From contig JAYODI010000047.1 of the NCBI GenBank assembly GCA_038279365.1, positions 9,735-44,250 on the forward strand: DNA of 34,516 bases. Direction: 5' to 3'. The first letter of the stretch is position 1, and each line of letters starts with the position of its first letter. The notes below the pieces were generated by a model. The model ran no database searches, was not told where the DNA came from, and worked only from the letters and a program-made list of their open reading frames with translations. A program made the position numbers and the translations under genes. Source of the stretch: Candidatus Latescibacterota bacterium (GTDB lineage: Bacteria; Latescibacterota; UBA2968). This document shows, one piece after another, positions 83 to 20,491 of the stretch.

Positions 83-111
83 TTGACACCACTTCTGTGT
101 TCGGCTATTTT
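83..111 (+). promoter_or_regulatory. sigma70-type promoter of the T-box/pheST leader
   Basis: TTGACA (83-88), 17 bp spacer, TATTTT (106-111), about 12 nt before T-box Stem I. Confidence 0.75.
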
Positions 112-122
112 TTCCACCCAAA

Positions 123-473
123 GCAATGACAGAGAAAAGTAACCCGTCTCCAACCTCAAGAGAGAGGATGTGTCTTAGGCTGAAAACACATCCGATGGTA
201 TGAATGGGTGAAGTTCCCTCTCGAGCTGCAAAGCTGAATGGGGCAGAAAGAGGAAATAAGAAAGAAGAACACCACTCACGCAGGTGATTTTATCTTCTTC
301 CTTCTCTCTTTTATCTTCTTCCCGCCTCTATTAAGTTGCGCCGGTTGTCCACCGTCAATGTGACCCAATGGCACCTGCCATTGACAAAGTGGCATCTGCA
401 ATCACAGATGCAATTAGGGTGGTACCGCGGAAGATGCTCTTTCGTCCCTATGGGTGACGAAGGAGTTTTTTTT
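123..473 (+). ncRNA. T-box riboswitch, Phe-specific (specifier UUC), transcriptional class
   Basis: Stem I with AGTA (138-141), AGAGA bulge (~159-165), GGCTGAAA loop (178-185), GAA-G-TTC specifier (TTC 214-216), GA motif (~221-226); Stem III 392-411; T-box AGGGTGGTACCGCG (416-429); antiterminator closes with CGTCCCT (443-449); sits directly upstream of pheS. Confidence 0.92.
437..473 (+). terminator. T-box intrinsic terminator, mutually exclusive with the antiterminator
   Basis: CTCTTTCGTC...GACGAAGGAG hairpin (437-465) followed by T8. Confidence 0.85.
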
Positions 474-494
474 ATTTTTTTCAAGGAGTTCCCA

Positions 495-2051
495 TTGGCC
501 TCAGACATCGACCTCGCATCTCTCCACGCTCTCGAAATTCGCACACTGCGCGCCTTTGAAAACAAGGCTCATGCCGAACAAACCGATGCACAACTACAAA
601 ATGAATCTGGCATTGGAGAAGGCCAAGTGCGCCGTGCCGTAGAATGGCTCATCTCCAAATCGCTTCTCGAAATCACCAACGAAACCGCACATGCCATTAT
701 ATCGCTCACAGAAGTGGGGCAAGACTTTCTACAAAAAGGCGCCACTCCCGAATCTGCCCTTTTATCGCGTGCGGCAACCGAAAGCATCACCCTCAAAGAT
801 CTGCAAGACGACGACCGCTTTGACAAAGGATCGTGGGGCAGTGCATTTGGTGGGCTCAAAAAAGATGGCCTCATCGACATCGACAAAGGCGCCATCAAAA
901 TTGTCGATGTCGATCAAGCAACCTTCTATACAGAAAGGCTCATACCCGACTTATTTGGCAAATTTAAAGATTCCGAGTCAGGCCTTGCGCTCGAAGATTT
1001 TGCACCTGAAATGCAAACATACATTCAAGCCAATGCCCGAAAACGCGGTGGGGGCAAAGGCCCCATTCGCCTCGATGAACGCACCGAACGCACCTATCGC
1101 CTTACCCAATTAGGCCAACAAGTCCTTGCCGATGTGGTATCGGCCAATCTCACGGGTGACGAAATTTCGCAACTCACGCCCACCATGATTCAAGACGGAT
1201 CATGGAAAGGTGCAAGTTTCCGCCGGTACGACCTCTCCATCAAACCACCTCGCATCCTCATGGGCAAGCATCATCCTTACCGTACCTATCTTGACAACGT
1301 GCGCCGCAAACTGCTCTCACTGGGCTTTGAAGAAATGAAAGGCCCCCTTGTCGAAACCGAATTTTGGAACATGGATGCCCTCTTTATGCCCCAGTTCCAC
1401 GCGGCACGTAACATTCACGATGCTTATTATGTCAAAGAACCCACAAAATCAAAACAAGCCGAAGAACCCTTTTTCTCTCGTGTTGCCCAATCCCATCAAA
1501 ACGGTGGAGATACAGGCTCACGTGGCTGGCGCTACGAATTTAATGCCGAACGCTCTCGCCAACTTATTTTGCGCAGCCAAGGCACAGCCCTTTCGGCACG
1601 CACGCTCGCATCAGGCCCAAACAACCCAGGCAAATACTTTAGCATTGCCCGTTGTTTTCGCCACGACGATGTCGATGCCACCCACGCCGCCGACTTCTTT
1701 CAGGTAGAAGGCATTGTCTTAGGCGAAAGCATCACCTTTAGAAGCCTTGTGGGTCTCCTTAAAATGTTTGCCCTCGAAGTGGCCGAAGCCGAAGCCGTGC
1801 GGTATGTGCCCGACTACTTCCCATTTACCGAACCCTCTGTCGAACTCCAAGCCAAACACCCCACCCTCGGCTGGATCGAACTGGGCGGTGCGGGCCTCTT
1901 TCGCCCCGAGCTCACCCGCCCCTTAGGCGTAGACGTACCCGTCATTGCCTGGGGCCTTGGTGTAGACCGAATGGCCATGGTCGCCCTCGGCATCAACGAC
2001 ATTCGCGACCTCTTTAGCTCAGACCTTGACTTTGTTCGCAACCGGAGATAA
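495..2051 (+). CDS. pheS: Phenylalanine--tRNA ligase alpha subunit, long archaeal/eukaryal/spirochete type (~518 aa)
   Basis: Motifs HHPY, FWNMDALFMPQFHAAR, CFRHDDVDATHAADFFQVEG, YFPFTEPS, AWGLGVDR; long N-terminal extension. Start reassigned to in-frame TTG at 495 behind AAGGAG (483-488), because the ORF-track start at 336 lies inside the T-box. Confidence 0.95.
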   Translation: MASDIDLASLHALEIRTLRAFENKAHAEQTDAQLQNESGIGEGQVRRAVEWLISKSLLEITNETAHAIISLTEVGQDFLQKGATPESALLSRAATESITLKDLQDDDRFDKGSWGSAFGGLKKDGLIDIDKGAIKIVDVDQATFYTERLIPDLFGKFKDSESGLALEDFAPEMQTYIQANARKRGGGKGPIRLDERTERTYRLTQLGQQVLADVVSANLTGDEISQLTPTMIQDGSWKGASFRRYDLSIKPPRILMGKHHPYRTYLDNVRRKLLSLGFEEMKGPLVETEFWNMDALFMPQFHAARNIHDAYYVKEPTKSKQAEEPFFSRVAQSHQNGGDTGSRGWRYEFNAERSRQLILRSQGTALSARTLASGPNNPGKYFSIARCFRHDDVDATHAADFFQVEGIVLGESITFRSLVGLLKMFALEVAEAEAVRYVPDYFPFTEPSVELQAKHPTLGWIELGGAGLFRPELTRPLGVDVPVIAWGLGVDRMAMVALGINDIRDLFSSDLDFVRNRR

Positions 2052-2053
2052 CC

Positions 2054-3733
2054 ATGCCTACCATCACCGTCATTAAAGAAGACCTCGAACGCCTCGCCGG
2101 GCAAACCTACACCATGCCCGACCTCGAAAAAGCTCTCGAATATGCCAAAGCCGAAGTAAAAGTAGACGACAATGATGGCAAACTGCGCGTGCAACTCAAA
2201 GACACCAACCGCCCAGACTTATGGTCGTCTGAAGGTTTGGCACGCCAACTCAAAGGCCACCGAGAAACCCAGCACCCCAACTACACATTTTTCAACACCC
2301 CATCCACCAAGCGTGAACTCCACGTTGATCCACAACTGCAAAACATTCGGCCCTACATTGCCGCCTTTGCTTGTGAAGGCATCACCGTAGACGAAGCCGC
2401 ACTTGAGCAACTCATTGAAGCCCAAGAAAAACTCGCCGACGGATATGGCCGAGGTCGCAGCACTGTGGCCATTGGCATTTACGACGCTTCATCTATTCAA
2501 TACCCCATTCAATACCAAGCAGTTGATCCCGACACCACCACCTTTGTGCCACTCGAATTTGAAAAAGAAATGAGTCTGCGCCATATTCTCAAAGATCATC
2601 CCACAGGCGCAAAATATGCACACCTGCTTCAAGGCCTTGACAAGTTTCCCATCATTCGCGATGCCAAAAACGAAGTGCTTTCCATGCCGCCTGTGATCAA
2701 CAGCCAAACCTTGGGCCGCGTGGAAGTCGGCGACACACACCTCTTTTGTGAAGCCACTGGCACCGAACTTGATAGCGTGTTGCTCACCATTGCAATACTT
2801 GCTGCCAACATGGCCGACCGCGGTGGCACCATTCACCCTGTCACCATCAAATATCCTTACGACACACCACGGGGCCGAGAAATTTACAGCCCCACCGACC
2901 TCACCGAAGTCGTCAAGGTCAACACCGCAGAAATTCGTCGCCTCATCGGCACAGACCTTTCTGCCCAACAAATCGAAACAGCACTCCAAGCCATGGGCTA
3001 TCGCAACATCTCCGTGCAAGACACCCACGTCTTGGCCCAACCCGCACCCTATCGCGATGACATCTTACACCCCGTAGACATCATCGAAGATGTGATCATT
3101 TCCATTGGATACGAATCGTTTGAAGCCGAAATGCCCAAAGACTTCACAGTGGGCAAAGCCGCACCCATCGAAGATTTATCCGACCGTTTTCGCAACCTCA
3201 TGGTCGGCTGTGGTTTTCAAGAAATCTTCTCCCCCATCTTGGGTTCCCGAGAAGAACAAACCACACAAATGTGCAACCCCGACAACAAAATTGTCGAAAT
3301 TGCCAACCCCATGTCCGAATTTTATAGCTCCGTGCGTGGCTCGCTTCTGCCCGGCCTCTTGCGTGTCGAAAACACCAGCCGCCGTGCCAAATATCCACAT
3401 CGCACCTTCGAAGTCGGTGATGTCGCCGTCATCGATCCCGAACAAAACTACGGCACCCGTACCGACATTCTATTGTGCGCCCTCGAATCGGGTGAAGACG
3501 CCAACTTATCCAACATCCAAAGTTACCTCGAAGCCTTGGCTTATCACCTCCACATCAATTATACCTTGCGTCCCATCGATCATCCTTCTTTTTTACCTGG
3601 GCGCGCAGGTGAAATTTGTGTCAACGATAAAGCTTATGGCATCATAGGTGAAATACATCCCAACGTGCTCGACAACTGGGGCATTGCCATGCCAACCAGC
3701 ATATTTGAAATCAACATCAACATTGCGGAGTAA
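2054..3733 (+). CDS. pheT: Phenylalanine--tRNA ligase beta subunit, short archaeal type (559 aa)
   Basis: MPTI start, NRPDLWSSEGLAR, SMPPVINS, YRDDILHPVDIIEDV, GEIHP; ends at FEINI with no C-terminal anticodon-binding domain. Confidence 0.95.
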   Translation: MPTITVIKEDLERLAGQTYTMPDLEKALEYAKAEVKVDDNDGKLRVQLKDTNRPDLWSSEGLARQLKGHRETQHPNYTFFNTPSTKRELHVDPQLQNIRPYIAAFACEGITVDEAALEQLIEAQEKLADGYGRGRSTVAIGIYDASSIQYPIQYQAVDPDTTTFVPLEFEKEMSLRHILKDHPTGAKYAHLLQGLDKFPIIRDAKNEVLSMPPVINSQTLGRVEVGDTHLFCEATGTELDSVLLTIAILAANMADRGGTIHPVTIKYPYDTPRGREIYSPTDLTEVVKVNTAEIRRLIGTDLSAQQIETALQAMGYRNISVQDTHVLAQPAPYRDDILHPVDIIEDVIISIGYESFEAEMPKDFTVGKAAPIEDLSDRFRNLMVGCGFQEIFSPILGSREEQTTQMCNPDNKIVEIANPMSEFYSSVRGSLLPGLLRVENTSRRAKYPHRTFEVGDVAVIDPEQNYGTRTDILLCALESGEDANLSNIQSYLEALAYHLHINYTLRPIDHPSFLPGRAGEICVNDKAYGIIGEIHPNVLDNWGIAMPTSIFEININIAE

Positions 3734-3735
3734 AC

Positions 3736-4932
3736 ATGGACAAGCTACGCGTAGGCATTCTTGGGCTGGGGCGTGGTTACACCCACCTCAAAAACTTTCT
3801 CGACCTTGAAAACGCCGAAGTCATTGGCGCAAGTGATTGGTATGCCCCCCGCCACGAACGGGCCCAAAAACTCATCAGCGAAAAAGGGGCCTCTGTAAAA
3901 CTCGTCAAAGAATATGACGAACTGCTGGCCCTTAAACCCGATGCCATTGTGGTGGCCAGCAACGGCAAAGTTCAAGTAGAACATGCCTGCCAAGCCCTTG
4001 AGGCCGGATGCCATGTCTTATCCGAAGTGCCCGGTGCCTACACCCAAGAAGAATGTATGCGCCTGCGCGCCACCGTAGAAAGCACTGGCAAAACTTATAT
4101 GTTGGGTGAAAACACCTGCTACTGGGATTTCTTTCGTTACTTTCGCAAATGGGTGCAAGAAGATCTCTTTGGCCCCATCTCCATTGCCGAAGGCGAATAC
4201 ATCCACTGCTTGCCCGCCACCTTAAGGTTACCAGACGGCTCCACCCTCACCCCATCCAAAGCCCAAGCCGAAGGCCACACCAATACCACACCCATTTGGC
4301 GTGCCGATCAGCCCCCCATTCAATATCTCACACACGACCTCGGCCCACTCCTCGAAGTGCTCGACGACCGCTGTGTCTCTGTCTCTTGCCAAAGTGCGCC
4401 TTATCATTGCACCGATGCGCCTTTGCGTTCCGATGGCCAAATAGCCACCTTCAAAACCGCCAAAGGTTCCCTCATCAAAATCATGGTCACCCTCAGCACC
4501 CGTCGCCCCAGCGAACACCGCTACCGCATTTTTGGCGTCGAAGGCGGAGCCGAATGGTTCAGCTACGAAAAATCTGCCCGACGCTTTACCCGCCACAACG
4601 AAGAACGCGACGGTTGGGAAGTCATCCCCGTGGGTCTTGGTGCGCGCGGTGACGACACCTCAGCAGGCCACGGCGGTGCCGACCTCAAACTCAACCGCCA
4701 TTTTACCGAAACCATTCTCAATGGCACGCCCTCTCCCATCGACGTCTATCGCGCCATCGAATACAACCTCCCTGGCATCTTGGCAAACAAATCTGCCGAA
4801 TTGGGTGGTGCACCAGTGCCCATTCCCGACTTTCGCCCAAAACCGTTTACAACCACCACCTTCTGGGATAGCTTAGGCCTGCCAACAACCGAACCACAGG
4901 GCAAACCCTTTGTTCCACAAGAAACCGAGTAA
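3736..4932 (+). CDS. Gfo/Idh/MocA family oxidoreductase
   Basis: N-terminal GILGLGRG Rossmann motif, HVLSEVP, YMLGEN, AEGEYIH, GHGGAD. Confidence 0.85.
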   Translation: MDKLRVGILGLGRGYTHLKNFLDLENAEVIGASDWYAPRHERAQKLISEKGASVKLVKEYDELLALKPDAIVVASNGKVQVEHACQALEAGCHVLSEVPGAYTQEECMRLRATVESTGKTYMLGENTCYWDFFRYFRKWVQEDLFGPISIAEGEYIHCLPATLRLPDGSTLTPSKAQAEGHTNTTPIWRADQPPIQYLTHDLGPLLEVLDDRCVSVSCQSAPYHCTDAPLRSDGQIATFKTAKGSLIKIMVTLSTRRPSEHRYRIFGVEGGAEWFSYEKSARRFTRHNEERDGWEVIPVGLGARGDDTSAGHGGADLKLNRHFTETILNGTPSPIDVYRAIEYNLPGILANKSAELGGAPVPIPDFRPKPFTTTTFWDSLGLPTTEPQGKPFVPQETE

Positions 4933-4934
4933 AT

Positions 4935-5876
4935 ATGTTTGAGCACCCCTTCAACTTTGACCCCACATATGGCTACAACAAAGAAGCCTTGCTCAACGTA
5001 GGTCTACCCAACGCACCCACAGATTTTGATACCTTCTGGCAAGACACATTTTCCCAAACACAATCTGTTCCGCTTCAGATCCAAAAGGAACCTGAAACGA
5101 CCACAAGTGCCAATGTCGATGTCTTCACCATTTCATTCCACACCCTCGACAAAATCCGCATCGGTGGTTGGCTTGTCGCACCCAAAAACACGCAACCCAC
5201 TTCTGGTTTTGTCATCAGCCATGGGTATGGTGGTCGCACCGAACCCGTGCTCAACTTCCCCATTCCCAACGCCGTTGCGCTCTTACCATGTGCCCCAGGT
5301 TTTCACCGCTCGGCACACACAGAAATACCCAACACATCTCAGAAACATGTGATCCATCACATCGAAGATCGCAACACCTATATCATTCGCCACAGTGTCG
5401 CCTCTTTGTGGTCTGCCGCCTCCGTCTTGCTCGAACTTTACCCCACCATCCAAAATCAGCTATACTTTAGTGGAGGCAGTTTTGGGGGTGGTTTGGGCGC
5501 ACTGGCCCTTCCTTGGGATGCCCGCTTTAAAAAAGCCCATTTAAGCGTGCCCACATTTGGGCATCACCCCATTCGGCTCCAATGTCCCTGCAATGGCAGT
5601 GGCGAGGCCGTACGGCTTTTGCACCAAGAAAAACCAGAAATAGCACACACGCTCCAATATTTCGATGCGGCAACAGCAGCCAGTCACATCCAAATCCCAG
5701 TGCTCGGATCACCTGCCTTGTTCGATCCGTCTGTTCCGCCCCCTGGTCAATTTGCCGTATGCAATGCCCTCAGCAACATGCATATCTTAAGTGCCGGCCA
5801 TTTCACATACGACACACAAGTAGAAGAACAAAAAACCTTACAACAAGAACTGACCAAATGGTTCACATCCTCATAA
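4935..5876 (+). CDS. Acetylxylan esterase / cephalosporin-C deacetylase family (CE7, alpha/beta hydrolase)
   Basis: DFDTFW N-terminus, HGYGG, nucleophile elbow GGSFGG, TLQYFDA, FDPSVPP, AGHF. Confidence 0.85.
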   Translation: MFEHPFNFDPTYGYNKEALLNVGLPNAPTDFDTFWQDTFSQTQSVPLQIQKEPETTTSANVDVFTISFHTLDKIRIGGWLVAPKNTQPTSGFVISHGYGGRTEPVLNFPIPNAVALLPCAPGFHRSAHTEIPNTSQKHVIHHIEDRNTYIIRHSVASLWSAASVLLELYPTIQNQLYFSGGSFGGGLGALALPWDARFKKAHLSVPTFGHHPIRLQCPCNGSGEAVRLLHQEKPEIAHTLQYFDAATAASHIQIPVLGSPALFDPSVPPPGQFAVCNALSNMHILSAGHFTYDTQVEEQKTLQQELTKWFTSS

Positions 5877-5895
5877 CAAACCAAGGAGAAACAAA

Positions 5896-6897
5896 ATGCC
5901 AAATCTCGCATTTCTATCCACTGCCCACACCCACACCAAAGGTTTCCTCAAAACCGTCTCCGAAAAAGAAGGCACCAACCTCGTCGCCATCTGGGACGAC
6001 ATGGAATCACGTGGCCAAGCCTTTGCCGATCAGTACAGCTGTGATTTTTCTGCAGACCTCGACGCCGTTATCAGCCGAGACGATGTAGACGGTTTCATCA
6101 TCTGTGTCGAAAACACGCGTCACCTGCCCCTCCTCAAAGCCGCCATCCCCACAGGCAAACCCATCTTCTGCGAAAAGCCATTTACCACAACGGCAGCCGA
6201 AGCAGCCGAAGCCTTGGCACTTATTCGCGAGCACAACACCATCGTGCACATGGGTTATTTCCAACCCTTCTCAGCCGCAATGCAAGGCGTGATTCAACAC
6301 GTTGCTTCTGGTGCATTGGGCACCATCACACACGCACGTTATCGCAACGCCCACAACGCCGCTTATGGTCGATGGTTCGACTCGCCCGAACTCGCCTGGT
6401 TCCACGACCCAGCCCTTGCGGGTGGTGGTGCTTTTATGGACATGGGCACACATGCCGTCCATCTCATGCGCACCGTCTTAGGCCCCGTTGAAAAAGTATT
6501 TGCAACCATCAGCAACAAGTCGGGCATCTACACCACCGTTGATGATAACGGTGTCGCCATCTTCCAATTTGCCAATGGCTGTGTGGCCACCATTGAAGGA
6601 TCTTGGGTGCAAACTGGCGGTTTAAGTGGCATCGAAGTCGTTGGCAGTGAAGCAACCCTCTTCCAACATCCTCAGCACGGACTCGTAACTGCAAAACCCC
6701 GTGAAGAACCCGTTGCTGTTGCCCCAGGCCAAGAAAAGCCCACCCGCGTAGATCGCCTCGTTGCCGCCATAGAAGGCAAAGTCTCCAAAGAAGAACTCGA
6801 TGCCGACCTCGTTTGTGCCGCCGATGCCGTGGCCATTATGGAAGCCTGTTACACATCCAACAAAACAGGTGGATGGGTCGATGTGGCAACCATCTAA
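5896..6897 (+). CDS. Gfo/Idh/MocA family oxidoreductase
   Basis: CEKP motif, GGGAFMDMGTH; RBS AAGGAG upstream. Confidence 0.9.
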   Translation: MPNLAFLSTAHTHTKGFLKTVSEKEGTNLVAIWDDMESRGQAFADQYSCDFSADLDAVISRDDVDGFIICVENTRHLPLLKAAIPTGKPIFCEKPFTTTAAEAAEALALIREHNTIVHMGYFQPFSAAMQGVIQHVASGALGTITHARYRNAHNAAYGRWFDSPELAWFHDPALAGGGAFMDMGTHAVHLMRTVLGPVEKVFATISNKSGIYTTVDDNGVAIFQFANGCVATIEGSWVQTGGLSGIEVVGSEATLFQHPQHGLVTAKPREEPVAVAPGQEKPTRVDRLVAAIEGKVSKEELDADLVCAADAVAIMEACYTSNKTGGWVDVATI

Positions 6898-6920
6898 AGT
6901 TAAAAAACACTTGTAAAACC

Positions 6921-6953
6921 AAAATCCGCGTGCCATCTTGCACGCGGATTTTT
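6921..6953 (+). terminator. Intrinsic terminator after the pheST-Gfo-CE7-Gfo run
   Basis: AAAATCCGCGTGC / GCACGCGGATTTT perfect 13-bp inverted repeat ending in a T tract. Confidence 0.8.
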
Positions 6954-6985
6954 ATTTACCATCACCAAACATACAGGAGCAGCGT

Positions 6986-8275
6986 ATGCCCCTCAAAATT
7001 GGCCTTTCAAAAACCGACATCACCCCTCCCATTGGCATTTTTTTAGCCGGATATGCCAACCGCTTGGAACCCTCTGAAGGGGTATATCTCCCACTTACAG
7101 CAACTGCCATTGCAATAGATGACGGCAAAGCGGAAGCCCTGATCATAGGCGCCGAAATCCTCGGTTTTTACGAGCACACCCAACGTGTGCGTCAGCGCAT
7201 TGGCGAAAAAACAGGCCTCCAGCCTCACCAAATCATCCTCAACGGTTCCCACACCCACTGTGGCCCCGTCTTGCGAGAAGTAGACCGCGAACGACACGGC
7301 AATATCGATGATCATTATCTTGAACAACTCATAGAAAAAGTCGCCACCTGTGCTCATCAAGCCTGGCAAAACCGAGAACCATCCATCCTCAAATTTGGCA
7401 CCGGCACCTGTAACTTTGCCGTCAACCGACGCCTTCCCGATGAAAACGGCATTTTCCAAATGCGCCCCAATCCCAATGGCCCCGTCGATCACACCGTTTC
7501 TGTGCTCGCCATTGAAACACCCACAGGCCAAACAAAAGGGGTGCTCTTTTCTTATGCCTGCCATCCCACCAGCCGAGGTGGGTTGCTCATTGGTGGCGAT
7601 TATGTGGGTTTTGCCTTACAACACATTGAACAAAACAACAATCTCACGGCTTGTTTTTTACAAGGTTGCGCCGGAGACATCAAACCTGGTCCAGCAGATG
7701 CAACAGCCACCACCTTTACCCCACGAACCATTGAGCAGGTGCAAGCAATCGGTGAACAATTAGGGCAAGCCGTTTACAATATACTTCAATCACAAATGCT
7801 CACACCCATTGATGGCGAACTCCACATTGCCACCCAAACCATTGTATTGGAAATGGAACCGATCACCCATTCACAAATTGAAGCAGGCCTCCAAGATCCA
7901 AACAAAGTCATTCAACAATGGGCCACCCATTTCAAAAACCTGACAGATGCCCACAGCGCTCTCAGCACCCAGATACCCTTTGAAGTTCAAACCCTCTCCA
8001 TAGGCAGTGCCTTTGCCCTGGTAGCCTTATCTGGAGAAATATCTGTCGAATATGCCCTACGCCTCCAAAAAGATCTCACCCCCAACTTTCACCATGCCAT
8101 CATCTGCGCCTATGCCAATCACATCATTGGATACGTGCCGGCCAAACGGCAAATTCCCGAAGGCGGTTATGAGGTCTGGGCCAATCAATACCATCTCAAA
8201 AGACCTGGCCCATATGTGGAAACCACCGAAGACACAATTTGTGATACCGCTATAAAATTACTCACCCAAAAATAA
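6986..8275 (+). CDS. Neutral/alkaline ceramidase N-terminal domain-like hydrolase
   Basis: DITPP, LAGY, SHTHCGP, YACHPT, FLQGCAGD, GYVP, EGGYE; start set at ATG 6986 behind AGGAG. Confidence 0.75.
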   Translation: MPLKIGLSKTDITPPIGIFLAGYANRLEPSEGVYLPLTATAIAIDDGKAEALIIGAEILGFYEHTQRVRQRIGEKTGLQPHQIILNGSHTHCGPVLREVDRERHGNIDDHYLEQLIEKVATCAHQAWQNREPSILKFGTGTCNFAVNRRLPDENGIFQMRPNPNGPVDHTVSVLAIETPTGQTKGVLFSYACHPTSRGGLLIGGDYVGFALQHIEQNNNLTACFLQGCAGDIKPGPADATATTFTPRTIEQVQAIGEQLGQAVYNILQSQMLTPIDGELHIATQTIVLEMEPITHSQIEAGLQDPNKVIQQWATHFKNLTDAHSALSTQIPFEVQTLSIGSAFALVALSGEISVEYALRLQKDLTPNFHHAIICAYANHIIGYVPAKRQIPEGGYEVWANQYHLKRPGPYVETTEDTICDTAIKLLTQK

Positions 8276-11430: not shown

Positions 11431-14292
11431 TTAAAACCGTACAGAAACACCACCAGAAATCAACCGACCAATTTCAGGTGCCCCAATAAAGGCCCGATAC
11501 TTTTTGTTGAGGGCATTGCTGACATCGGCATGAAAAGTAATTTGGATTGCACCATTCATAGGCAAGTCATAGGCGGCATGTGTATCCAATACCGTATAAC
11601 TGTCAACCAAGCCCACATACACACCCGAGTCCATTGGAAAACCATCGCGATAACGCACACGGCCTTCTAAGCGCAAACCCATATTGGGAAATGCATAGTT
11701 GACCGACACATTGCCCTTGTGTTTGGGTGCATTGAGTGCAATATCCGCAATGCCATCTAAGTTCTGAAACAAATCTTCACTCACATAAGAATAGTTACCC
11801 GTAATTGTCCAGGACTTATTGGGATAGTATGCAAAACTCGCATCGGCACCATAATACGTCACCTTACCAAAGTTGCGATAGGTCAACATCACAGCGGCTG
11901 GGTCAACGGCTTCTTCTGGCGAAATGGTACCAAATGGAATACGTGCCGCATTTGAAACAAATGCCCCCGTCAATTCATCCACTGCCGAACCATTGCCATT
12001 GCCCCCCAATGAGGGGGCATCCAATGCCAATACCGCCTGAGCCAACTGTGCATTGGCTGGATCAGCCAAATTTTGAGCCAAGGCTGTGCCAAATGCCGAG
12101 GTCAAAGATGCCGGTGCCAAAAACACATTGGGTGTTTCAATGCGCAATGGGCCAACAAAGTCTTTTTTCTGCGAACGATACACATCGGCGGCAAATACCC
12201 ACTTATCGTTGACAATGCCTTTGTAACCAACCTCAAAAGTTTCTGTAATGGTTGGCTTGATTTTGGCCACATCGGTAACGGAGTTTTGCAAATCGGTGGT
12301 AAAATCAAATCCACTGGTTTGCAAATTGAGGTGCCCCACGGCATTTTGTAACCCCGGCAATACCGATGGAATGATGCTCGGAAAAGCGGCTGCCAATTGT
12401 GCGGCTTGTGCCGCTGCTAAGGTGGGTGCCTGATCTGCTGGCACACCTGCTGCAATCATTTGTTGCGCAATGGCACCCGTAGCAACTTGTTGCAACTGAG
12501 GGGTCAGTTGTGCCAACACCGCACCACGAGCCACCCCCCACATCACATTGGTAAATTGTGGGTCGTGTAAGGCTACATATTGCGAAGTTTCAAGCCCACC
12601 CACTGGCGCAAACGGTGAACGAAACATGGGCAAACCATTTGTGTCGCGTCTAAATGTAAACCCTGTGGTGGTGCCTTGTGTGCGCACATCTATAGCAGGG
12701 TTATACCCCAACGCAGGGGCAAAACTGGCACCAATGCCAAATGCATCAGGATTTGCCTTGAGATCCAAAAACAAATTATTACTCGAAGGAGTATCAAATG
12801 CACGGTTATAGGTCAAACGAAGGGTATGCAAATCTTCGGGTTTAAAAACAAGGGCTGCCCGAGGTGACCAAACTGGGTTTTCAAGATATTTGTGATCGTC
12901 AATACGACCAGCCAATATCACATCCCATTGATCTGACAGCTTCGTTTCACTTTGCACATAAAACCCATATTCATCAATGCCATCTGTTGTTTCATGCACA
13001 CCATTAATTGTACCTTCTGTATTGGGGCGCGTAAATTGCGCATCCACACCATACGTAAATGATTGCCGCAAACCCAATTCAACCGCATGCTGGAGTTGAA
13101 ACACCGTCAGGGTAGATTTGTCTACAATCGGGTTGCCAGAACGCAACAAGGTGGTATTTCCTGCATCGCTTTTATTGTGAAATACCTGTCCAAACCACCC
13201 CTTGTATAAAACACGCCCTTGAAAAAATTGATACGTCCAATCATCGGCTTGCCCAGCCCCCAAACCTGTCATATCAATATTATCCGCACTGTTGTATCCG
13301 GCCGAAAAAATAGCTGTTAAATTATCTGTTGGACGAAAATCCAAACGCAGTTCACCCAATTTGCGTTCTTGATCATAAACACGCGGGTTAAAGCCACGGG
13401 CTCTCAACTCTTCAGGATCTTCATATTTCCAATCGGTAGCCGCATAATATTGTCCCGAAATTTTATACGCCACCTTGTCACTCAAACGCCCAGCCTGACG
13501 CACCGTAACTTGGCGCATGCTGCGCTCGCCCCCTTTTGCCTGAACGGTTGTTCCTTCCGATTCAAATGGAGACTTTGTCAGAATATGCATCACACCATTT
13601 GCACTATTTGGGCCATACAAGGCCGCTCCCGGCCCCAGCACCAACTCAATGCGCTCAATATCCTCATCTGTGATGGGAATAAAGTTACTGGCATTTAAAC
13701 GCAGTGAAGGCACACTGGAGATACGGTTGTCTACCAACGTCAACATAGCCCCAGAAAAAACATTGTTAAAACCACGCACAACCGTATTGCTTTGCGACAT
13801 GCCCGTAGGTGAAAAATCAACGCCAGGCAACCCCTTTACCAACTCAGAGACACTCGTTGCGGTTCGATCTTGAATATCACTCGACTCTAAAACAGACACC
13901 GAAGCCGGTGCATCAATAACCTTCTCGCGTCGTCGAGAGGCAGACACAACAATTTGACCTTGCATAAAAGCTTCAGCTTCTAAAGAAAAGTTTGCCTTCG
14001 ACACAATGCCCGTGCTGATTTTTACCCCAATTTTTGTTTGTGCTTTGTATCCAACAAAAGAAACTGTTATATCATAAACACCTGCCGGGAGAGCCGAAAC
14101 TTTATAATACCCGTCACCATCGGCGGTCATACCACGCCGAATATTTAATGATGGACTGGTAATAAACACATTGGCACCGGCCAATGGTTCACCATTGGCC
14201 TCACGCACAACACCTTCAACAGTGCCTTCATTTTGCGCCCAAGCCGATCCAGACAAAAACACAACCACAACAAAAAACAATATGTTACGCAT
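11431..14292 (-). CDS. TonB-dependent receptor with N-terminal carboxypeptidase-regulatory-like domain
   Basis: Signal peptide, EPLAGANV, IVVSASR TonB-box region, IERIELVLGPGAALYG, C-terminal GRLISGGVSVRF; start at ATG 14292 behind GGAGGA. Confidence 0.92.
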   Translation of the reverse strand: MRNILFFVVVVFLSGSAWAQNEGTVEGVVREANGEPLAGANVFITSPSLNIRRGMTADGDGYYKVSALPAGVYDITVSFVGYKAQTKIGVKISTGIVSKANFSLEAEAFMQGQIVVSASRRREKVIDAPASVSVLESSDIQDRTATSVSELVKGLPGVDFSPTGMSQSNTVVRGFNNVFSGAMLTLVDNRISSVPSLRLNASNFIPITDEDIERIELVLGPGAALYGPNSANGVMHILTKSPFESEGTTVQAKGGERSMRQVTVRQAGRLSDKVAYKISGQYYAATDWKYEDPEELRARGFNPRVYDQERKLGELRLDFRPTDNLTAIFSAGYNSADNIDMTGLGAGQADDWTYQFFQGRVLYKGWFGQVFHNKSDAGNTTLLRSGNPIVDKSTLTVFQLQHAVELGLRQSFTYGVDAQFTRPNTEGTINGVHETTDGIDEYGFYVQSETKLSDQWDVILAGRIDDHKYLENPVWSPRAALVFKPEDLHTLRLTYNRAFDTPSSNNLFLDLKANPDAFGIGASFAPALGYNPAIDVRTQGTTTGFTFRRDTNGLPMFRSPFAPVGGLETSQYVALHDPQFTNVMWGVARGAVLAQLTPQLQQVATGAIAQQMIAAGVPADQAPTLAAAQAAQLAAAFPSIIPSVLPGLQNAVGHLNLQTSGFDFTTDLQNSVTDVAKIKPTITETFEVGYKGIVNDKWVFAADVYRSQKKDFVGPLRIETPNVFLAPASLTSAFGTALAQNLADPANAQLAQAVLALDAPSLGGNGNGSAVDELTGAFVSNAARIPFGTISPEEAVDPAAVMLTYRNFGKVTYYGADASFAYYPNKSWTITGNYSYVSEDLFQNLDGIADIALNAPKHKGNVSVNYAFPNMGLRLEGRVRYRDGFPMDSGVYVGLVDSYTVLDTHAAYDLPMNGAIQITFHADVSNALNKKYRAFIGAPEIGRLISGGVSVRF

Positions 14293-14446
14293 ACAATCCT
14301 CCCATTTATATCGCAACCGATAAAAATCAACATCAACTGATGTTATTCAAGGTTGGTGCCCTCGTTATTTTTTATACGGCATAAAATTCAATCTATAAAA
14401 GACTGCGCTTAATGAAGCTAATCATAAAATAAATGAAAGTCATGCA

Positions 14447-14505: not shown

Positions 14506-15675
14506 TCACGCCCCCACAACATCTCTCAGCCTTAGAGGACACCAAATCATATTGCCATCTAACACAGATATTTTACAATTTTCCAAAATATCGATATCTC
14601 CAGTTTGGCAAGTCTCAATACCCAAAGTGCTCACACACTTTACGTCTATGCCACCTGTTTGTGATACCTTACCTTGCAAACGAGCCATATCACCACTGAT
14701 CATAACTTGCCCATTGTCAGAAACGGTTACTTCAGGTATCGTCACAGACACATTTAATTCCGGTTTGCATCTGCCCCCGACATATATCCCTGCCACACGA
14801 CCATTCAAAACCTGAATTGCGTCATCTACCCATTGATTTAAAATCGTACATTGTTGCGTTTGCTTATCAAATTTACGTGTTAAAAAAAACAAATCGTGCA
14901 CATCTCTCACAATGCCCTTAAAAATCTCTTGGCGGTGTCGGTTTTTGCCCACCAAAAAATGTTGATTGGCACGTGTCAACAAACCCACAATGGCTTTTGC
15001 AAAAAACTCTCGCAATGCTTTGTCCATATCCTGTTCTTGTCGGTTAGACAACGATTCGTAAATAGGTTGCAAATTAATCACCAAGCGATTGCGTTTGGCC
15101 TGTAAGATACGTCCCACATTCGATGCCAAAATCACACGTGTGTTTTTAAACATTTTATCAACGCGTTTCTCTTCCATTCGCAATTTGCGCTCTGTTGCAT
15201 CACGCTCCCACTGTGCATCTGCCAAACCTTTTTTTAAATAATCTATTTTTTTACGCGCCAAATCATATTCACCCACCCGCACGCGTGCATCTGTCAAATC
15301 GCCACCAACTTCAAAGCCCAAACGGGCATTCACCTGTACATCTGAAGCATCGGTGCCCACATACACAGTGTTTGCATCCAACACCGCATGAGAAACCGCC
15401 CCCTTGACCACCACATCACCATCCACTTCAATACGAATAGGCATACGGCTGTTGCCCAAAAGAGAGCCGTTGATCACCACATTGCCTATCCCACGCACAA
15501 CACTCCCTGGCCCACCATCGCCCAAAACCATGAGTGTTCCTTCATATAAGTCAAGTGGGCCTTCGGTAAACAATAATTCATCGCGCCGAAAAATGGGTGT
15601 CACTTGCTCCAATTCACTGGAAACATCTTCAATTTTAAATTGACCTAACATAGCCCCCACCAAAGACTCGCGCAT
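14506..15675 (-). CDS. FapA/DUF342-like protein (beta-solenoid plus coiled coil)
   Basis: GNVVINGS...IEVDGDVVVKGAV...TVYVG repeats, ARVRVG followed by a long coiled coil, then IYVGG-x-KPELNVSV; start uncertain (15675 or 15681). Confidence 0.55.
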   Translation of the reverse strand: MRESLVGAMLGQFKIEDVSSELEQVTPIFRRDELLFTEGPLDLYEGTLMVLGDGGPGSVVRGIGNVVINGSLLGNSRMPIRIEVDGDVVVKGAVSHAVLDANTVYVGTDASDVQVNARLGFEVGGDLTDARVRVGEYDLARKKIDYLKKGLADAQWERDATERKLRMEEKRVDKMFKNTRVILASNVGRILQAKRNRLVINLQPIYESLSNRQEQDMDKALREFFAKAIVGLLTRANQHFLVGKNRHRQEIFKGIVRDVHDLFFLTRKFDKQTQQCTILNQWVDDAIQVLNGRVAGIYVGGRCKPELNVSVTIPEVTVSDNGQVMISGDMARLQGKVSQTGGIDVKCVSTLGIETCQTGDIDILENCKISVLDGNMIWCPLRLRDVVGA

Positions 15676-15705
15676 AATCAACGCGCAAAAGGTCTAAAAA
15701 CACAC

Positions 15706-16116
15706 CTACCGAACCTGCAAATGCGCCCGCCCCATGCGTTGCACTTTGCCTAAGTATTCTCCCATTTGATGTGCAGAATCAACCAAATCAAAAAAAGCAT
15801 CCAAAGCCACAGGTTTATCCAACAACATATCGGCACACCCCGCCAAACCATCGATCACTTCATCTGGAATATGCCCCGATATAATTGCGATTACAGCATG
15901 AGGACACATATTGCGCATCAAAGGCAATATTTCCAAACCACTTGCCCCAGGCATTTGAATATCGAGTGTAATCAGTTGATAATCGCGTAAGACCACCTCT
16001 TCTAAAGCGGCTTCAGCAGACCTGGCCGAATAGACCTCTTGGTGCCCACGTGCAACAACAGCTTGTGTTAAAAATTGAATCAGAGCCAGATCGTCATCTA
16101 CTATAAGTGTATTCAT
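15706..16116 (-). CDS. Single-domain response regulator
   Basis: LIVDDD, LDIQMPG, SG, DKPV; ATG at 16116 behind GAGGAG. Confidence 0.88.
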   Translation of the reverse strand: MNTLIVDDDLALIQFLTQAVVARGHQEVYSARSAEAALEEVVLRDYQLITLDIQMPGASGLEILPLMRNMCPHAVIAIISGHIPDEVIDGLAGCADMLLDKPVALDAFFDLVDSAHQMGEYLGKVQRMGRAHLQVR

Positions 16117-16141
16117 AAACAACTCCTCAAAAGGTCTGCCT

Positions 16142-17653
16142 TTACGCACTGATTGGGATTGTTTGTGGCACAGCCACTTTTGCATCGTAAATAGGAAATT
16201 GCAATTGAAAAATTGTACCAACACCTTCTTCACTATCTACCTGAATATGTGCATGGTGACGCTTCAGCATAGCGCGCACAATTGCCAACCCCAACCCCGT
16301 TCCTTTTCCTTCTGGTTTGGTCGTATAAAAGGGTTGGAAAATTTCTTCTATCTTCGACTCGGGAATGCCATGACCAGTATCTTGAATGGTGACACAAATC
16401 TTACGCTTACTTCGCCGAACACCAATGGTTAATTCTTTCTTAGGTGACGCCTCCATGGCTTGCACAGCATTCACAATCAAATTTCGCACAACTTGCTCTA
16501 TTTGAGATGGGTCACCAAAGATGGGCGCCGTATCAGATAAGTAATTGCGTTTTACCACACAAAATTTCACCACACCCAAAGGTTGCAATGTATCCAATAA
16601 CTGCTCAATCAATTCAATAACATTTATCACTTCTTGGCGTCTCTTTTCGGGTTTACCCAAATTGGTCATTTGGCGAACCATATATAACAATTGCTCAGTT
16701 GCTGGCAATATGCGATTTATGGTCTCACGCGCCTGTTGAATATTGCCCTGTTCAAGCCAAGTTTGCGCCAATTCAGCATTTCCAGAAACCAATTGCAAAG
16801 GCGTCTTAAATTCATGTGCAATACGGGGTGCCATTTGCCCCAACATAGACAACCGCTCTGCCTGAAACAGCTGTGATTCCAACAACTCACGTTCGCTTTG
16901 GTCTTCGAGTACATACAAATGTGCAATTTCTTCTGCTTGGTCATTCACAATATCTTTTTTATGTACCAATACCGGAAACTCTGTGCCATCTTGACGAACA
17001 TGCGTTGTGTACCCCGTCTCAGACATCTCACCAAAAACACGAGTGACCGAACGCCCCAATATCTCAGTACATTTATACCCATACATATTTTCGGCCATAT
17101 CATTAAATGTGAGTACCACCGATTCTCTGTCTGTTGAAATCACACCAAAAGGAGCCGCATCAATCAAATGATTCAGATACTTTTCCGTTTGTGACAGTTT
17201 TTCATCTTGTTCAAGCAACTGTTTTTGAAGCACCGAACGCGTTTGCATTAAATCGCCAATCAGCATGCGATTTTCAACAATGCGTTCTCGTGTATCCAAT
17301 GCATGAACAATATGATTTGTGAGTTCTTCCAATGTAAATGGCTTCATCAAAAAATCACTGACGCCACAAGCCAAGGCACGTACTGCCGTTTCTTGGTCAC
17401 GCATTGCAGTAATCACAACAGGCACAACAGTGGCATCACGCAAACGAATTTGACGCAACATTTCTAGGCCGTCCATATCTTCCATCTTGACATCAGTCAA
17501 AATCAAATCAAAAACATCTTCCTCAAACAATGCCAACCCTTCTTCACCAGAAGAGGCCAATACCACATCATGCCCTTGTAATGTCAAAGCCTCTTTCACA
17601 AAATTTCGAATAAACTTTTCATCATCAACAACCAAAATTTTCGCACCATACAT
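16142..17653 (-). CDS. Cytoplasmic hybrid kinase (REC-PAS-HisKA-HATPase)
   Basis: ILVVDDE...TDVKM...KPF; PAS FNDMAENMYGY...RQDGTEFPV; AHEFKTPL; NLIVNAVQAM; PFYTTK; GTGLGL. Confidence 0.9.
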   Translation of the reverse strand: MYGAKILVVDDEKFIRNFVKEALTLQGHDVVLASSGEEGLALFEEDVFDLILTDVKMEDMDGLEMLRQIRLRDATVVPVVITAMRDQETAVRALACGVSDFLMKPFTLEELTNHIVHALDTRERIVENRMLIGDLMQTRSVLQKQLLEQDEKLSQTEKYLNHLIDAAPFGVISTDRESVVLTFNDMAENMYGYKCTEILGRSVTRVFGEMSETGYTTHVRQDGTEFPVLVHKKDIVNDQAEEIAHLYVLEDQSERELLESQLFQAERLSMLGQMAPRIAHEFKTPLQLVSGNAELAQTWLEQGNIQQARETINRILPATEQLLYMVRQMTNLGKPEKRRQEVINVIELIEQLLDTLQPLGVVKFCVVKRNYLSDTAPIFGDPSQIEQVVRNLIVNAVQAMEASPKKELTIGVRRSKRKICVTIQDTGHGIPESKIEEIFQPFYTTKPEGKGTGLGLAIVRAMLKRHHAHIQVDSEEGVGTIFQLQFPIYDAKVAVPQTIPISA

Positions 17654-17706
17654 AACACGGCCCCCGAAATCCATATGGTTTCTCTTTTGCATTTTCCAAC
17701 AAGCAA

Positions 17707-17722
17707 TGCAACAATTATGCCA
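17707..17722 (-). promoter_or_regulatory. sigma54 (-24/-12) promoter
   Basis: Minus strand reads TGGCATAATTGTTGCA = GG-N10-GC, near consensus TGGCAC-N5-TTGCW, about 55 bp upstream of the kinase. Confidence 0.75.
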
Positions 17723-17857
17723 TATCAGAGCGAAACGGATAATATACGAATAGACAATAAGTTATATAGATCCGCCTTCGCAATCGCAGTGAGCAATATG
17801 TCGAAATCACCCATTTGACGAAATGCAATTTCGTTATTTGACCAATCTGCCAGCTAC

Positions 17858-17896
17858 AAAAAGAACCACATCATGAACAATGAGTGGTTCTTTTTT
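17858..17896. terminator. Hairpin terminator downstream of the CheB-fusion gene
   Basis: AAAAAGAACCAC..TCAT / ATGA..GTGGTTCTTTTT inverted repeat. Confidence 0.7.
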
Positions 17897-17941
17897 ATTT
17901 GCAAACAATACCATACAAATATGTTTTCGTGCATTCAGCCC

Positions 17942-19138
17942 CTAAGCCAAATCAAGTATATGCTTGGCAATTTGTGACAAGGGCACAACTTGGTCAACAG
18001 CACCACATGCAATGGCCTCTTTGGGCATACCAAATACCACACAACTTGCTTCATCTTGCGCCATGTTCATGGCCCCTGCATGTTTCATTTCCAACATGCC
18101 TTGGGCACCATCTGCCCCCATGCCCGTAAGCATAACACCAATGGCATTTTTACCCGCATATTGGGCAACAGAACGAAATAATACTTCTACCGAAGGACGG
18201 TGACGACACACCAATGGACCTTGTTTGACTTGCACCTGATACAAAGCCCCCGAACGCTTTAATGTCATATGTTTGTTTCCCGGAGCAATAAGCACCCGTC
18301 CGGGCACAACCTGATCACCGTCAACGGCCTCACGCACTTCCACTTTGCACAAATCGTTTAATCGATCTGCAAATGATTTTGTAAAATACTCTGGCATATG
18401 TTGCACAACAACCGTACCAGGTGCATTGGGTGGAAATTGTTCAATAATCTCACGCAATGCTTCGGTCCCCCCCGTTGACGCCCCAATAGCAACCACTCGA
18501 AATAGATCGAAAATGCGTTGGGGTGATAAATGGCCAAAATCCATTTTATATAATACATCTTGTAACAACTCACCATCAACACCTCTACCCGTTGTAAAAT
18601 GCAATCGAAAAGCAGGATTAGACATCCAAATACAACACTGAGCATCAATGACACAAACCGGAAACGGAATGTTATTTAAAATAGAAACACTCAGTGCTTG
18701 CGCTTGTTCCAACCGCAATTGTTGATCAACTGCAGTCTCCTGAAGCAACTGTATATCCTCTTTCACACTGCGTTTTTCTTGCAAAAAGGAAAACGCGTCT
18801 TCTATTTTTGCATTCAAATCTGCAAACAAAATAGGCTTTGGCAAAAAAGCAAATGCCCCTTCATTTACAGCCTTAATAGCCAAATCCATATCCCCATAAC
18901 CCGTGATGATAATCACCGGTATCTCTGGCTGGGTTGCTTTTACGGTTTGCAACACATCAAACCCACTGGCACCAGGCATTTGAATATCGGTAACCACCAA
19001 ATCAAAAATATCAGATTCAATGGAAGCAATGGCCTTGGCACCATCTGATATGGCTTGTACCTGATCACCTCGAAACGCGAGATATTTGCGAAGTGTTTCT
19101 AAAACCATCACATCATCATCGGCGACAAGGATTTTCAT
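17942..19138 (-). CDS. cheB: Atypical fusion: NtrC-like receiver, coiled coil, partial PAS, CheB methylesterase domain
   Basis: C-terminal VAIGASTGG, QHMP, HRPSVEVLF, LTGMGADGA, QDEASCVVFGMP; N-terminal ILVADDD...TDIQMPG...TGYG...KP. Confidence 0.8.
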   Translation of the reverse strand: MKILVADDDVMVLETLRKYLAFRGDQVQAISDGAKAIASIESDIFDLVVTDIQMPGASGFDVLQTVKATQPEIPVIIITGYGDMDLAIKAVNEGAFAFLPKPILFADLNAKIEDAFSFLQEKRSVKEDIQLLQETAVDQQLRLEQAQALSVSILNNIPFPVCVIDAQCCIWMSNPAFRLHFTTGRGVDGELLQDVLYKMDFGHLSPQRIFDLFRVVAIGASTGGTEALREIIEQFPPNAPGTVVVQHMPEYFTKSFADRLNDLCKVEVREAVDGDQVVPGRVLIAPGNKHMTLKRSGALYQVQVKQGPLVCRHRPSVEVLFRSVAQYAGKNAIGVMLTGMGADGAQGMLEMKHAGAMNMAQDEASCVVFGMPKEAIACGAVDQVVPLSQIAKHILDLA

Positions 19139-19155
19139 AAACAATTCCAATCGTT

Positions 19156-20466
19156 TTACATAAACAAGTATTTTGCAATAAAAATCACAGCCAGCACATC
19201 GACCAATGCGTGTACATCATCGCCTTTGCCACCCAAACGTTTTACAATCGGATAAGATATAAAACCCAAAGCCAAACCATCAGAAATGCTAAATGTTAAT
19301 GGAATGGCAATAAGGGTTAAAAATGCTGGCAAAGCTTCAGACACATCTTGCCAGTCTATATTAACCACAGGCAACATCATCAACACCCCCACCATCACCA
19401 ATGCAGGTGAGGTGGCAAACAATGGAATAGACTGGATTAAAGGGGTAAAAAACAATGCGACCAAAAACAACCCCCCTGTTATCACATTGGCAAAACCCGT
19501 ACGCGCACCTACCGAAATCCCCGAAGCACTTTCGATATACGTGGTCACAGTTGATGTGCCCAATATCCCGCCACAAACCGTTCCTACCGAATCGGCAAGC
19601 AATGCGCGATTGGCCCGTGGCAATTGCCCAGATTTGTTTAAAAAACCCACCCGCTCAGACAACCCAACCAATGTGCCCATCGTATCAAAAAGATCGACAA
19701 ATAAAAATGCAAAGACCAGCTCAATAAGCCCCACATGAAACGCAATGGGAACATTTTCAACAGCCACCCCAAACAAATGAACCGGCAAAATGGGCAAGCT
19801 CACAATCTCTTGTGGCCAAGACGATACCCCAAAAACCATTGCCAAAACCGTTACGCCCACAATGCCCAAAAGAATCGCTGCATTCACCCCACGCACCATC
19901 ATCACACCCGTACCCAAAATACCCAACAACACCAAACCGACTGGCCCTGTTTTAACATCTCCTAAAGAAACCAAAGTGGCTTCGTCGGCCACAATAATCC
20001 CCGCATTCTTTAGACCAATAAACGCAATAAACAAACCAATGCCCGCTGCCGTTGCTCGTTTTAACGGTTCTGGTACAGCCGTAATGATGGCCTCGCGCAC
20101 CTTTAATAAAGTAAGCAAAACAAACAACAACCCCGATGCCAACACCACGCCCATGGCCAGCTCCCAATGCACCCCCATGCCCAAAACCACACCATATGCA
20201 AAAAAGGCATTTAACCCCATACCCGGTGCCAAAGCAAATGGATAATTGGCCAATAAACCCATCAAAAGTGTGGCAATGGCAGCTGAAACACATGTAACAA
20301 ACACCAGCTCGCCAAACAAATCGCGCCCCAAAGCATCGGATAAAATACTGGGATTAACCACCACGATATAAGCCATGGTCATAAAGGTGGTCACCCCCCC
20401 AAGGGCTTCAACCCGAAAATGGGTGCCGACCTCATCAAATTTAAAAAAACGCGCAATCGCTTCCAT
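19156..20466 (-). CDS. NCS2/AzgA-family nucleobase (purine) permease
   Basis: GGVTTFMTMAYIVVVNP, APGMGLNAFF, DLFDTMGTL, GTSTVTTYIESASG. Confidence 0.93.
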   Translation of the reverse strand: MEAIARFFKFDEVGTHFRVEALGGVTTFMTMAYIVVVNPSILSDALGRDLFGELVFVTCVSAAIATLLMGLLANYPFALAPGMGLNAFFAYGVVLGMGVHWELAMGVVLASGLLFVLLTLLKVREAIITAVPEPLKRATAAGIGLFIAFIGLKNAGIIVADEATLVSLGDVKTGPVGLVLLGILGTGVMMVRGVNAAILLGIVGVTVLAMVFGVSSWPQEIVSLPILPVHLFGVAVENVPIAFHVGLIELVFAFLFVDLFDTMGTLVGLSERVGFLNKSGQLPRANRALLADSVGTVCGGILGTSTVTTYIESASGISVGARTGFANVITGGLFLVALFFTPLIQSIPLFATSPALVMVGVLMMLPVVNIDWQDVSEALPAFLTLIAIPLTFSISDGLALGFISYPIVKRLGGKGDDVHALVDVLAVIFIAKYLFM

Positions 20467-20491
20467 ACAATCCTTTCTCTATCATTGATGC

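Follow-up and report, generated by a model that had tools for sequence, protein, structure and literature searches.

We conclude with high confidence that positions 83-497 of the stretch of DNA analysed here (34,516 nucleotides [nt] in full, hereafter the window) comprise a promoter and leader serving a pheS-pheT operon, that this leader belongs to the class I (transcriptional) T-box riboswitches and is specific for tRNA-Phe, and that the regulated enzyme is an archaeal-type phenylalanyl-tRNA synthetase (PheRS) in a Latescibacterota-like diderm host. The conserved parts of a T-box leader are all present, the antiterminator and terminator helices exclude one another and differ clearly in folding energy, and the structure is conserved, with compensatory base changes, in a related genome.

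We scanned both strands of the window with Rfam at the gathering threshold. The only family reported was the T-box family RF00230, which cmscan matched to positions 117-452 of the + strand with 105.6 bits (gathering threshold 93, E = 1.4e-22). The alignment is untruncated, spanning model positions 1-219 of 219, and this covariance check bears out the T-box proposed by the initial annotation. A second full-length RF00230 match lies in the closest PheS locus, L001, a Candidatus Latescibacterota metagenome-assembled genome (MAG) whose PheS is 74% identical. L001 and the other loci numbered with an L are the best 80 of 600 stretches from a PheS search of a genome collection, and among them L001 alone is close to the window. 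The elements of the leader are as follows.

83-111, + strand: sigma-70-like promoter from a consensus scan (TTGACA at 83-88, 17-nt spacer, TATTTT at 106-111)
117-452, + strand: T-box leader RNA, full-length match to RF00230
123-226, + strand: Stem I, from the cmscan alignment to the consensus
125-130 and 222-224, + strand: basal GA (kink-turn [K-turn]-type) motif of Stem I, from cmscan
135-141 and 210-217, + strand: specifier loop, from cmscan
158-165, + strand: AG bulge of Stem I, from cmscan
172-187, + strand: distal loop of Stem I, from cmscan
214-216, + strand: assigned specifier UUC (Phe), followed by C217 and the basal helix CUCU at 218-221, from position and gene context
229-340, + strand: Stem II with a lineage-specific expansion of about 79 nt (approximately 240-333), from the cmscan insert, repeats, and folding
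342-354, + strand: Stem IIA hairpin (CGG...CCG), from cmscan, with pairs identical in L001
366-383, + strand: extra hairpin in the linker from Stem IIA to Stem III, inserted with respect to the RF00230 model, from folding
392-411, + strand: Stem III, from cmscan
415-450, + strand: T-box sequence and antiterminator, from cmscan, folding at -12.4 kcal/mol
436-481, + strand: intrinsic terminator, from folding, with a hairpin at 436-466 and then U8 A U7 at 466-481
483-497, + strand: ribosome-binding site (RBS) AAGGAG (483-488) and TTG start codon (495-497) of pheS, from the sequence

Within Stem I, the segments AAUGAC/UCGAGC, AAAAGUA, and GAA fall on consensus columns with high posterior probability in cmscan. 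We take these segments to be the GA/K-turn motif and the AGUA and GAA (S-turn) elements. AGAGA (161-165, inside the bulge at 158-165) and the distal loop GGCUGAAA align to the consensus AGAGA and GGUGaaA. Judged by this sequence-level match, the AG bulge and distal loop appear to supply the platform for the tRNA elbow. Stem II is built differently: its expansion consists of purine 7-mers (AGAAAGA, 3.6 copies at 245-269) facing pyrimidine 7-mers (TATCTTC, 4.1 copies at 291-319), and it folds as a long hairpin (-30 kcal/mol, z = -2.7).

The 3' part of the leader contains two competing structures. The T-box core AGGGUGGUACCGCG occupies 416-429, and the exact 12-nt core occurs once in the window. 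The antiterminator carries a 7-nt bulge, UGGUACC (420-426), in which U420-G421-G422-U423 is predicted to pair with ACCA at the 3' end of the tRNA. The terminator hairpin folds at -18.2 kcal/mol alone and at -20.3 kcal/mol with added pairs to the U-run, and it thereby exceeds the antiterminator in stability by about 6-8 kcal/mol. The 3' strand of the antiterminator doubles as the 5' arm of this hairpin (436-448), and positions 438-448 are common to both helices. A simple consensus terminator scan found no terminator on the + strand, whereas folding did reveal this one. Thus, the promoter, Stem I motifs, Stem III, UGGUACC bulge, and competing terminator listed by the initial annotation were each recovered by scan, cmscan, or folding.

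The position of this hairpin also bears on the mode of regulation. Actinobacteria have translational T-boxes, as described in the available text on the T-box database TBDB (10.1101/2020.06.17.157016), and a Shine-Dalgarno-like GAAGGAG lies at 459-465 inside the 3' arm of the terminator. A leader of this Actinobacterial type would hide the RBS instead of terminating transcription. However, after the hairpin comes U8 A U7, a 16-nt U-rich run that is the signature of an intrinsic terminator, and the L001 leader likewise ends in a hairpin and U-run, with its start codon about 160 nt farther on. In the window, the RBS (483-488) is located 3' of both hairpin and U-run and is unpaired in every fold. 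Because the RBS in use lies beyond these elements, we regard a translational mode as very unlikely.

We then examined which codon is presented to the tRNA. The 3' side of the specifier loop reads GAAGUUCC (210-217) and holds two overlapping codons, with GUU (213-215) right after GAA and UUC (214-216) 1 nt before the basal helix. For comparison we used nine pheS leaders: the window, L001, and seven of Firmicute type. UUC lies 1 nt 5' of the basal helix in all nine, while the -1 frame varies (AUU in four, GUU in four, UUU in one) and the spacer between GAA and the codon is 0 or 1 nt. The loop sequence GAAGUUCC is identical in L001 and in one Clostridia leader (L064). The UGGU bulge is present in all nine leaders, including all seven of Firmicute type.

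A specifier read as GUU would make the T-box a sensor of tRNA-Val. GUU follows GAA directly in both the window and L001, and a codon directly after GAA, without a spacer, is found in four of the seven Firmicute-type leaders. The UGGU bulge, which fits a tRNA with discriminator base A73, would suit tRNA-Val as well, since tRNA-Val also carries A73. Against this, the genes downstream of the leader are pheS and pheT, and GUU occurs in only four of the nine leaders. In addition, the TBDB default (+0) counts the specifier frame from the loop's 3' end, which gives UUC here and not GUU, and the available description of that database states that two-codon families favour one specifier ending in C, with UUC strongly preferred for Phe (10.1101/2020.06.17.157016). 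We therefore rejected GUU, whose frame varies across the nine leaders, and consider sensing of tRNA-Val extremely unlikely. On these sequence comparisons, namely its constancy in all nine leaders, the TBDB frame rule, and the preference for UUC among Phe specifiers, we assign the specifier as UUC. This agrees with the original assignment of UUC at 214-216, and the Phe specificity is backed by the nine leaders together with UGGU.

To assess conservation, we compared the leader with that of L001, where the RF00230 match spans 2549-2813 (81 bits, E = 6.3e-16, reported under an E-value threshold). Coordinates for 47 model pairs were taken from the two cmscan alignments; a MAFFT pairwise alignment misplaced Stem III and P1_upper. 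Identical pairs number 26 of 47, another 5 are changed on one side and still paired, and 11 are changed on both sides and still paired. Three pairs are broken in one sequence, and two, an A.C and an A.G at the base of Stem II, are non-canonical in both. Seven of the two-sided compensatory changes fall in Stem I and three in Stem III, which also has one one-sided change. The UGGUACC bulge is identical to that of the window, and folding gives L001 an antiterminator of -15.4 kcal/mol and a terminator of -18.0 kcal/mol that is followed by a U-run. Both promoter hexamers and their 17-nt spacing are likewise identical, while the spacer sequence is different. Eleven two-sided changes, with the motifs kept across 26% divergence in PheS, point to selection on the RNA structure.

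The two leaders also differ in several respects. The 79-nt insert in Stem II is missing from L001. A linker hairpin is found in the same place in L001 (2725-2740), with another sequence. The L001 T-box is rich in G+C (65%), and the distance from terminator U-run to pheS start is about 160 nt in L001 (2840-3000) compared with 13 nt in the window.

This conservation bears on whether the leader could be a decaying relic without regulation, either carried in with a replacement gene or left behind by the replacement. T-boxes are rare outside Firmicutes according to the available text of two surveys (PMC2494555, PMC3766115), none was found in the 17 other bacterial archaeal-type pheS loci with upstream sequence, and Stem II bears an insert built of repeats. 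However, every conserved motif is intact and the score is above gathering. Moreover, the whole leader has been kept in two lineages whose PheS proteins are 26% apart, with 11 two-sided changes and with identical specifier, bulge, and promoter hexamers. Decay is thus an extremely improbable explanation.

We next considered where translation of pheS begins. The AAGGAG ends 6 nt ahead of TTG 495, and this start gives a protein of 518 amino acids (aa). We listed the best 120 protein matches each for PheS and IlvB. The closest PheS among those listed, P0001 (518 aa, 91% identical), begins at the residue that TTG 495 encodes, and a length of 518 aa was found in 19 of 59 close relatives, the great majority being 513-531 aa. 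The mechanical list of open reading frames (ORFs), by comparison, runs pheS back to TTG 336, yielding 571 aa. A public gene call, P0002 (571 aa, 88% identical), opens with the T-box core read as protein, and P0060 (85% identical) begins with a window-like terminator read as protein. Both the 571-aa ORF from 336 and the public call accord with the warning in the initial annotation that ORF callers would hide the leader. In five of the 120 listed matches, the LHALE motif is preceded by more than 25 residues. Of these extended calls, the T-box core peptide is found only in P0002 and the terminator peptide only in P0060; P0011 is suggestive at most, and the N-terminal extensions of P0033 and P0036 show no trace of leader peptide. 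The extensions of P0002 and P0060 provide indirect, sequence-level indications that the leader is present in two further relatives.

The chance that 336-494 is instead coding, as an N-terminal extension of PheS, is negligible: the frame is open from TTG 336 and P0002 is similarly extended, but the lengths of the relatives, the start of P0001 at the residue encoded at 495, and the placement of AAGGAG before TTG 495 all oppose it, and the extension peptide of the window resembles that of P0002 only over the T-box core and terminator.

Several observations weigh against a tRNA-Phe T-box as we describe it. A purine usually follows the specifier; the window has C217 and L001 also has C, and across the nine leaders this position is C in three (including L064) and A or G in six. 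A tRNA gene was not found in the window, and the match to anticodon GAA and A73 draws on general knowledge of bacterial tRNA-Phe. The L001 leader falls under the Rfam gathering threshold (81 vs 93 bits) and is not reported at gathering, so standard annotation misses it. The covariation comes from two sequences, the window and L001. Finally, the promoter matches the consensus at 10 of 12 positions, and the promoter scan is weak when taken alone, with one site in positions 1-700 compared with a mean of 0.6 in shuffled sequence.

Based on these elements, we propose the following mechanism for the tRNA-Phe T-box. RNA polymerase would start near position 117. Stem I would then bind tRNA-Phe, with UUC (214-216) pairing with anticodon GAA and the distal platform of AG bulge and loop stacking on the tRNA elbow; the host tRNA-Phe is expected to carry GAA and A73. 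When the tRNA is uncharged, its free A73-C-C-A end would pair with U423-G422-G421-U420 and hold the antiterminator (415-450), and polymerase would read through into pheS-pheT. When the tRNA is charged, pairing with the bulge would be blocked, the terminator (436-466 plus U-run) would form, and transcription would end before the RBS. The predicted net effect is that pheS-pheT is switched on when phenylalanine is short.

The two genes behind the leader are listed below.

495-2051, + strand: pheS, phenylalanine-tRNA ligase alpha subunit, archaeal/eukaryal-type, 518 aa (NF003210, PF01409)
2054-3733, + strand: pheT, beta subunit, archaeal-type, 559 aa (TIGR00471 pheT_arch)

PheS scores 555 bits against NF003210 (cutoff 350), in keeping with the earlier placement of pheS downstream of the leader. 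PheT scores 527 bits against the archaeal model TIGR00471 pheT_arch (cutoff 282.65), and 136.9 bits against the bacterial model TIGR00472, under its cutoff of 402.65. The subunit lengths also fit this enzyme type, which combines a long alpha subunit of about 500 aa with a short beta subunit of about 550 aa. The archaeal type of pheS-pheT was overlooked by the initial annotation and is the more unusual aspect of the locus. We know of no T-boxes in archaea.

To place the enzyme, we built a quick maximum-likelihood tree of PheS (48 rows, LG+G4), with support given by the Shimodaira-Hasegawa-like approximate likelihood ratio test (SH-aLRT) only. It took in 20 of the 120 listed protein relatives and left out L011, L014, L016, L027, L029, four archaeal loci, and all bacterial-type loci. 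Bacterial carriers of archaeal-type PheS form one group (SH-aLRT 99) that comprises Spirochaetota, Nitrospirota, Eisenbacteria, Fermentibacteria, and the clade of the window. Within it, the PheS proteins of the window and L001 belong to one 15-row clade (SH-aLRT 100).

We then surveyed the other pheS loci for T-boxes. None was detected in 18 other bacterial archaeal-type loci at E ≤ 1, of which 17 have upstream sequence. L029, an archaeal-type locus without upstream sequence, had no T-box in a scan at gathering only. Because there are no T-boxes in the 17 other bacterial loci with upstream sequence, the leader is specific to the clade of the window among the bacterial archaeal-type pheS loci examined. 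For bacterial-type pheS loci, 40 of 44 were scanned with Rfam, all except L060, L063, L066, and L079. T-boxes that reached gathering were present in 7 of 20 Firmicute-like loci and in 0 of 20 loci from other phyla. The exact 12-nt core was found in 8 of the 80 pheS loci. The survey also returned a group I intron-like match at 633-843 (- strand) of L005, a Nitrospirae MAG, with 46.9 bits against a gathering threshold of 50 (E = 8.5e-09).

The remainder of the window is informative about the host. Positions 11431-14316 encode a TonB-dependent receptor with Plug and barrel domains, which implies an outer membrane, and the diderm host named in the initial annotation is thereby upheld. The evidence also favours its Latescibacterota-like affiliation. 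In addition to the L001 PheS, the named IlvB matches among the best 120 include five from Latescibacteria/Latescibacterota (69-90% identical) and two from Gemmatimonadetes (74%), and the closest listed relatives of PheS and IlvB are 83-97% identical. Judging from the best matches of these two genes, the host is best read as Latescibacterota-like.

Four genes follow pheT on the + strand (3736-8275) with gaps of 2-40 nt and encode a GFO/IDH/MocA oxidoreductase, an AXE1-family esterase, a second oxidoreductase, and a ceramidase-like protein. These genes may be co-transcribed with the T-box operon. The gene order 3' of pheT is not conserved in L001. Directly 5' of the pheS promoter, 8-nt tandem repeats occupy 1-44 (TGATTCGT, 3.9 copies, then ATTCGCCA, 2.2 copies), and the window begins inside them. 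Farther downstream, a signalling cluster on the - strand (14506-21622) encodes a CheB methylesterase, two hybrid histidine kinases or response regulators, and a lone receiver domain; beside it, the 391-aa ORF at 14506-15681 is without a Pfam match.

The leader itself represents a known type of switch in ordinary form, and only its Latescibacterota-like host and the archaeal-type enzyme that follows make it notable. Like Firmicute pheS T-box leaders, it has a Stem I with UUC, Stem III, a UGGU bulge, and a terminator in the same place before pheS. Unlike them, it is found in a Latescibacterota-like diderm with an archaeal-type PheRS and has the 79-nt expansion in Stem II and an extra linker hairpin. 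The T-box range in print, according to the available text of three sources, is confined to Firmicutes, Actinobacteria, Chloroflexi, and Deinococcus-Thermus, together with Geobacter and Pelobacter (PMC2494555, PMC3766115, 10.1101/2020.06.17.157016). The initial annotation overrated the novelty of the leader, as T-boxes outside Firmicutes had already been published (PMC2494555, PMC3766115).

Our literature search found no T-box in Latescibacteria, Gemmatimonadetes, Nitrospirae, or Acidobacteria, with the TBDB phylum listing outside that search. By title and abstract, none of the literature on Latescibacter and riboswitches concerned T-boxes, and a search combining T-box with archaeal phenylalanyl-tRNA synthetase returned only an unrelated review.

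Three known systems offer partial parallels, each as described in the available text of its source. The Bacillus cereus lysK T box precedes a class I lysyl-tRNA synthetase of Pyrococcal origin, and Foy et al. 2010 asked how leader and gene were joined (PMC2916919). As in the window, a bacterial T-box precedes a synthetase gene derived from archaea; in contrast to the pheST host, which is outside the known T-box phyla, lysK is a second, ancillary copy in a Firmicute (PMC2916919). The archaeal-type PheRS of Spirochaetaceae, with alpha subunits of 513-528 aa and beta subunits of 514-573 aa (Andam and Gogarten 2011, PMC3191353), is of the same type and size as that of the window (518 and 559 aa). 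Unlike the window, however, none of the 11 spirochaete loci with upstream sequence has a T-box (E ≤ 1). Lastly, the leuA T-boxes of Geobacter and Pelobacter, diderm Deltaproteobacteria (Wels et al. 2008, PMC2494555), are similarly isolated in a Gram-negative lineage far from Firmicutes. They belong to leucine biosynthesis (PMC2494555), whereas the T-box of the window controls an aminoacyl-tRNA synthetase operon in another phylum.

How this leader came to precede an archaeal-type gene can be answered only tentatively. One possibility, which we hold to be plausible but on balance doubtful, is that the T-box is native to the Latescibacterota clade and older than the enzyme, and that archaeal-type pheST displaced a resident bacterial pheST in place, inheriting its leader. 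Alternatively, a Phe leader from a Firmicute may have been acquired once, by transfer. If the T-box is native, T-box regulons, largely unannotated, would exist in candidate phyla related to the Fibrobacteres-Chlorobi-Bacteroidetes (FCB) group, and the fact that the L001 copy is under gathering supports such under-annotation. The origin of the family would then also be wider than Firmicutes, Actinobacteria, Chloroflexi, and Deinococcus-Thermus.

These findings add to the T-box host range a phylum-level host represented by MAGs only, and supply the second case, B. cereus lysK being the first, in which a bacterial tRNA-sensing leader precedes a synthetase gene derived from archaea. They also expose two failures of annotation, a leader swallowed into a pheS call and a GC-rich relative under Rfam gathering, both of which suggest that T-boxes in MAG-only phyla are likely under-counted. 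More broadly, this locus bears on how regulatory RNAs are retained or recruited when transfer replaces an essential gene.

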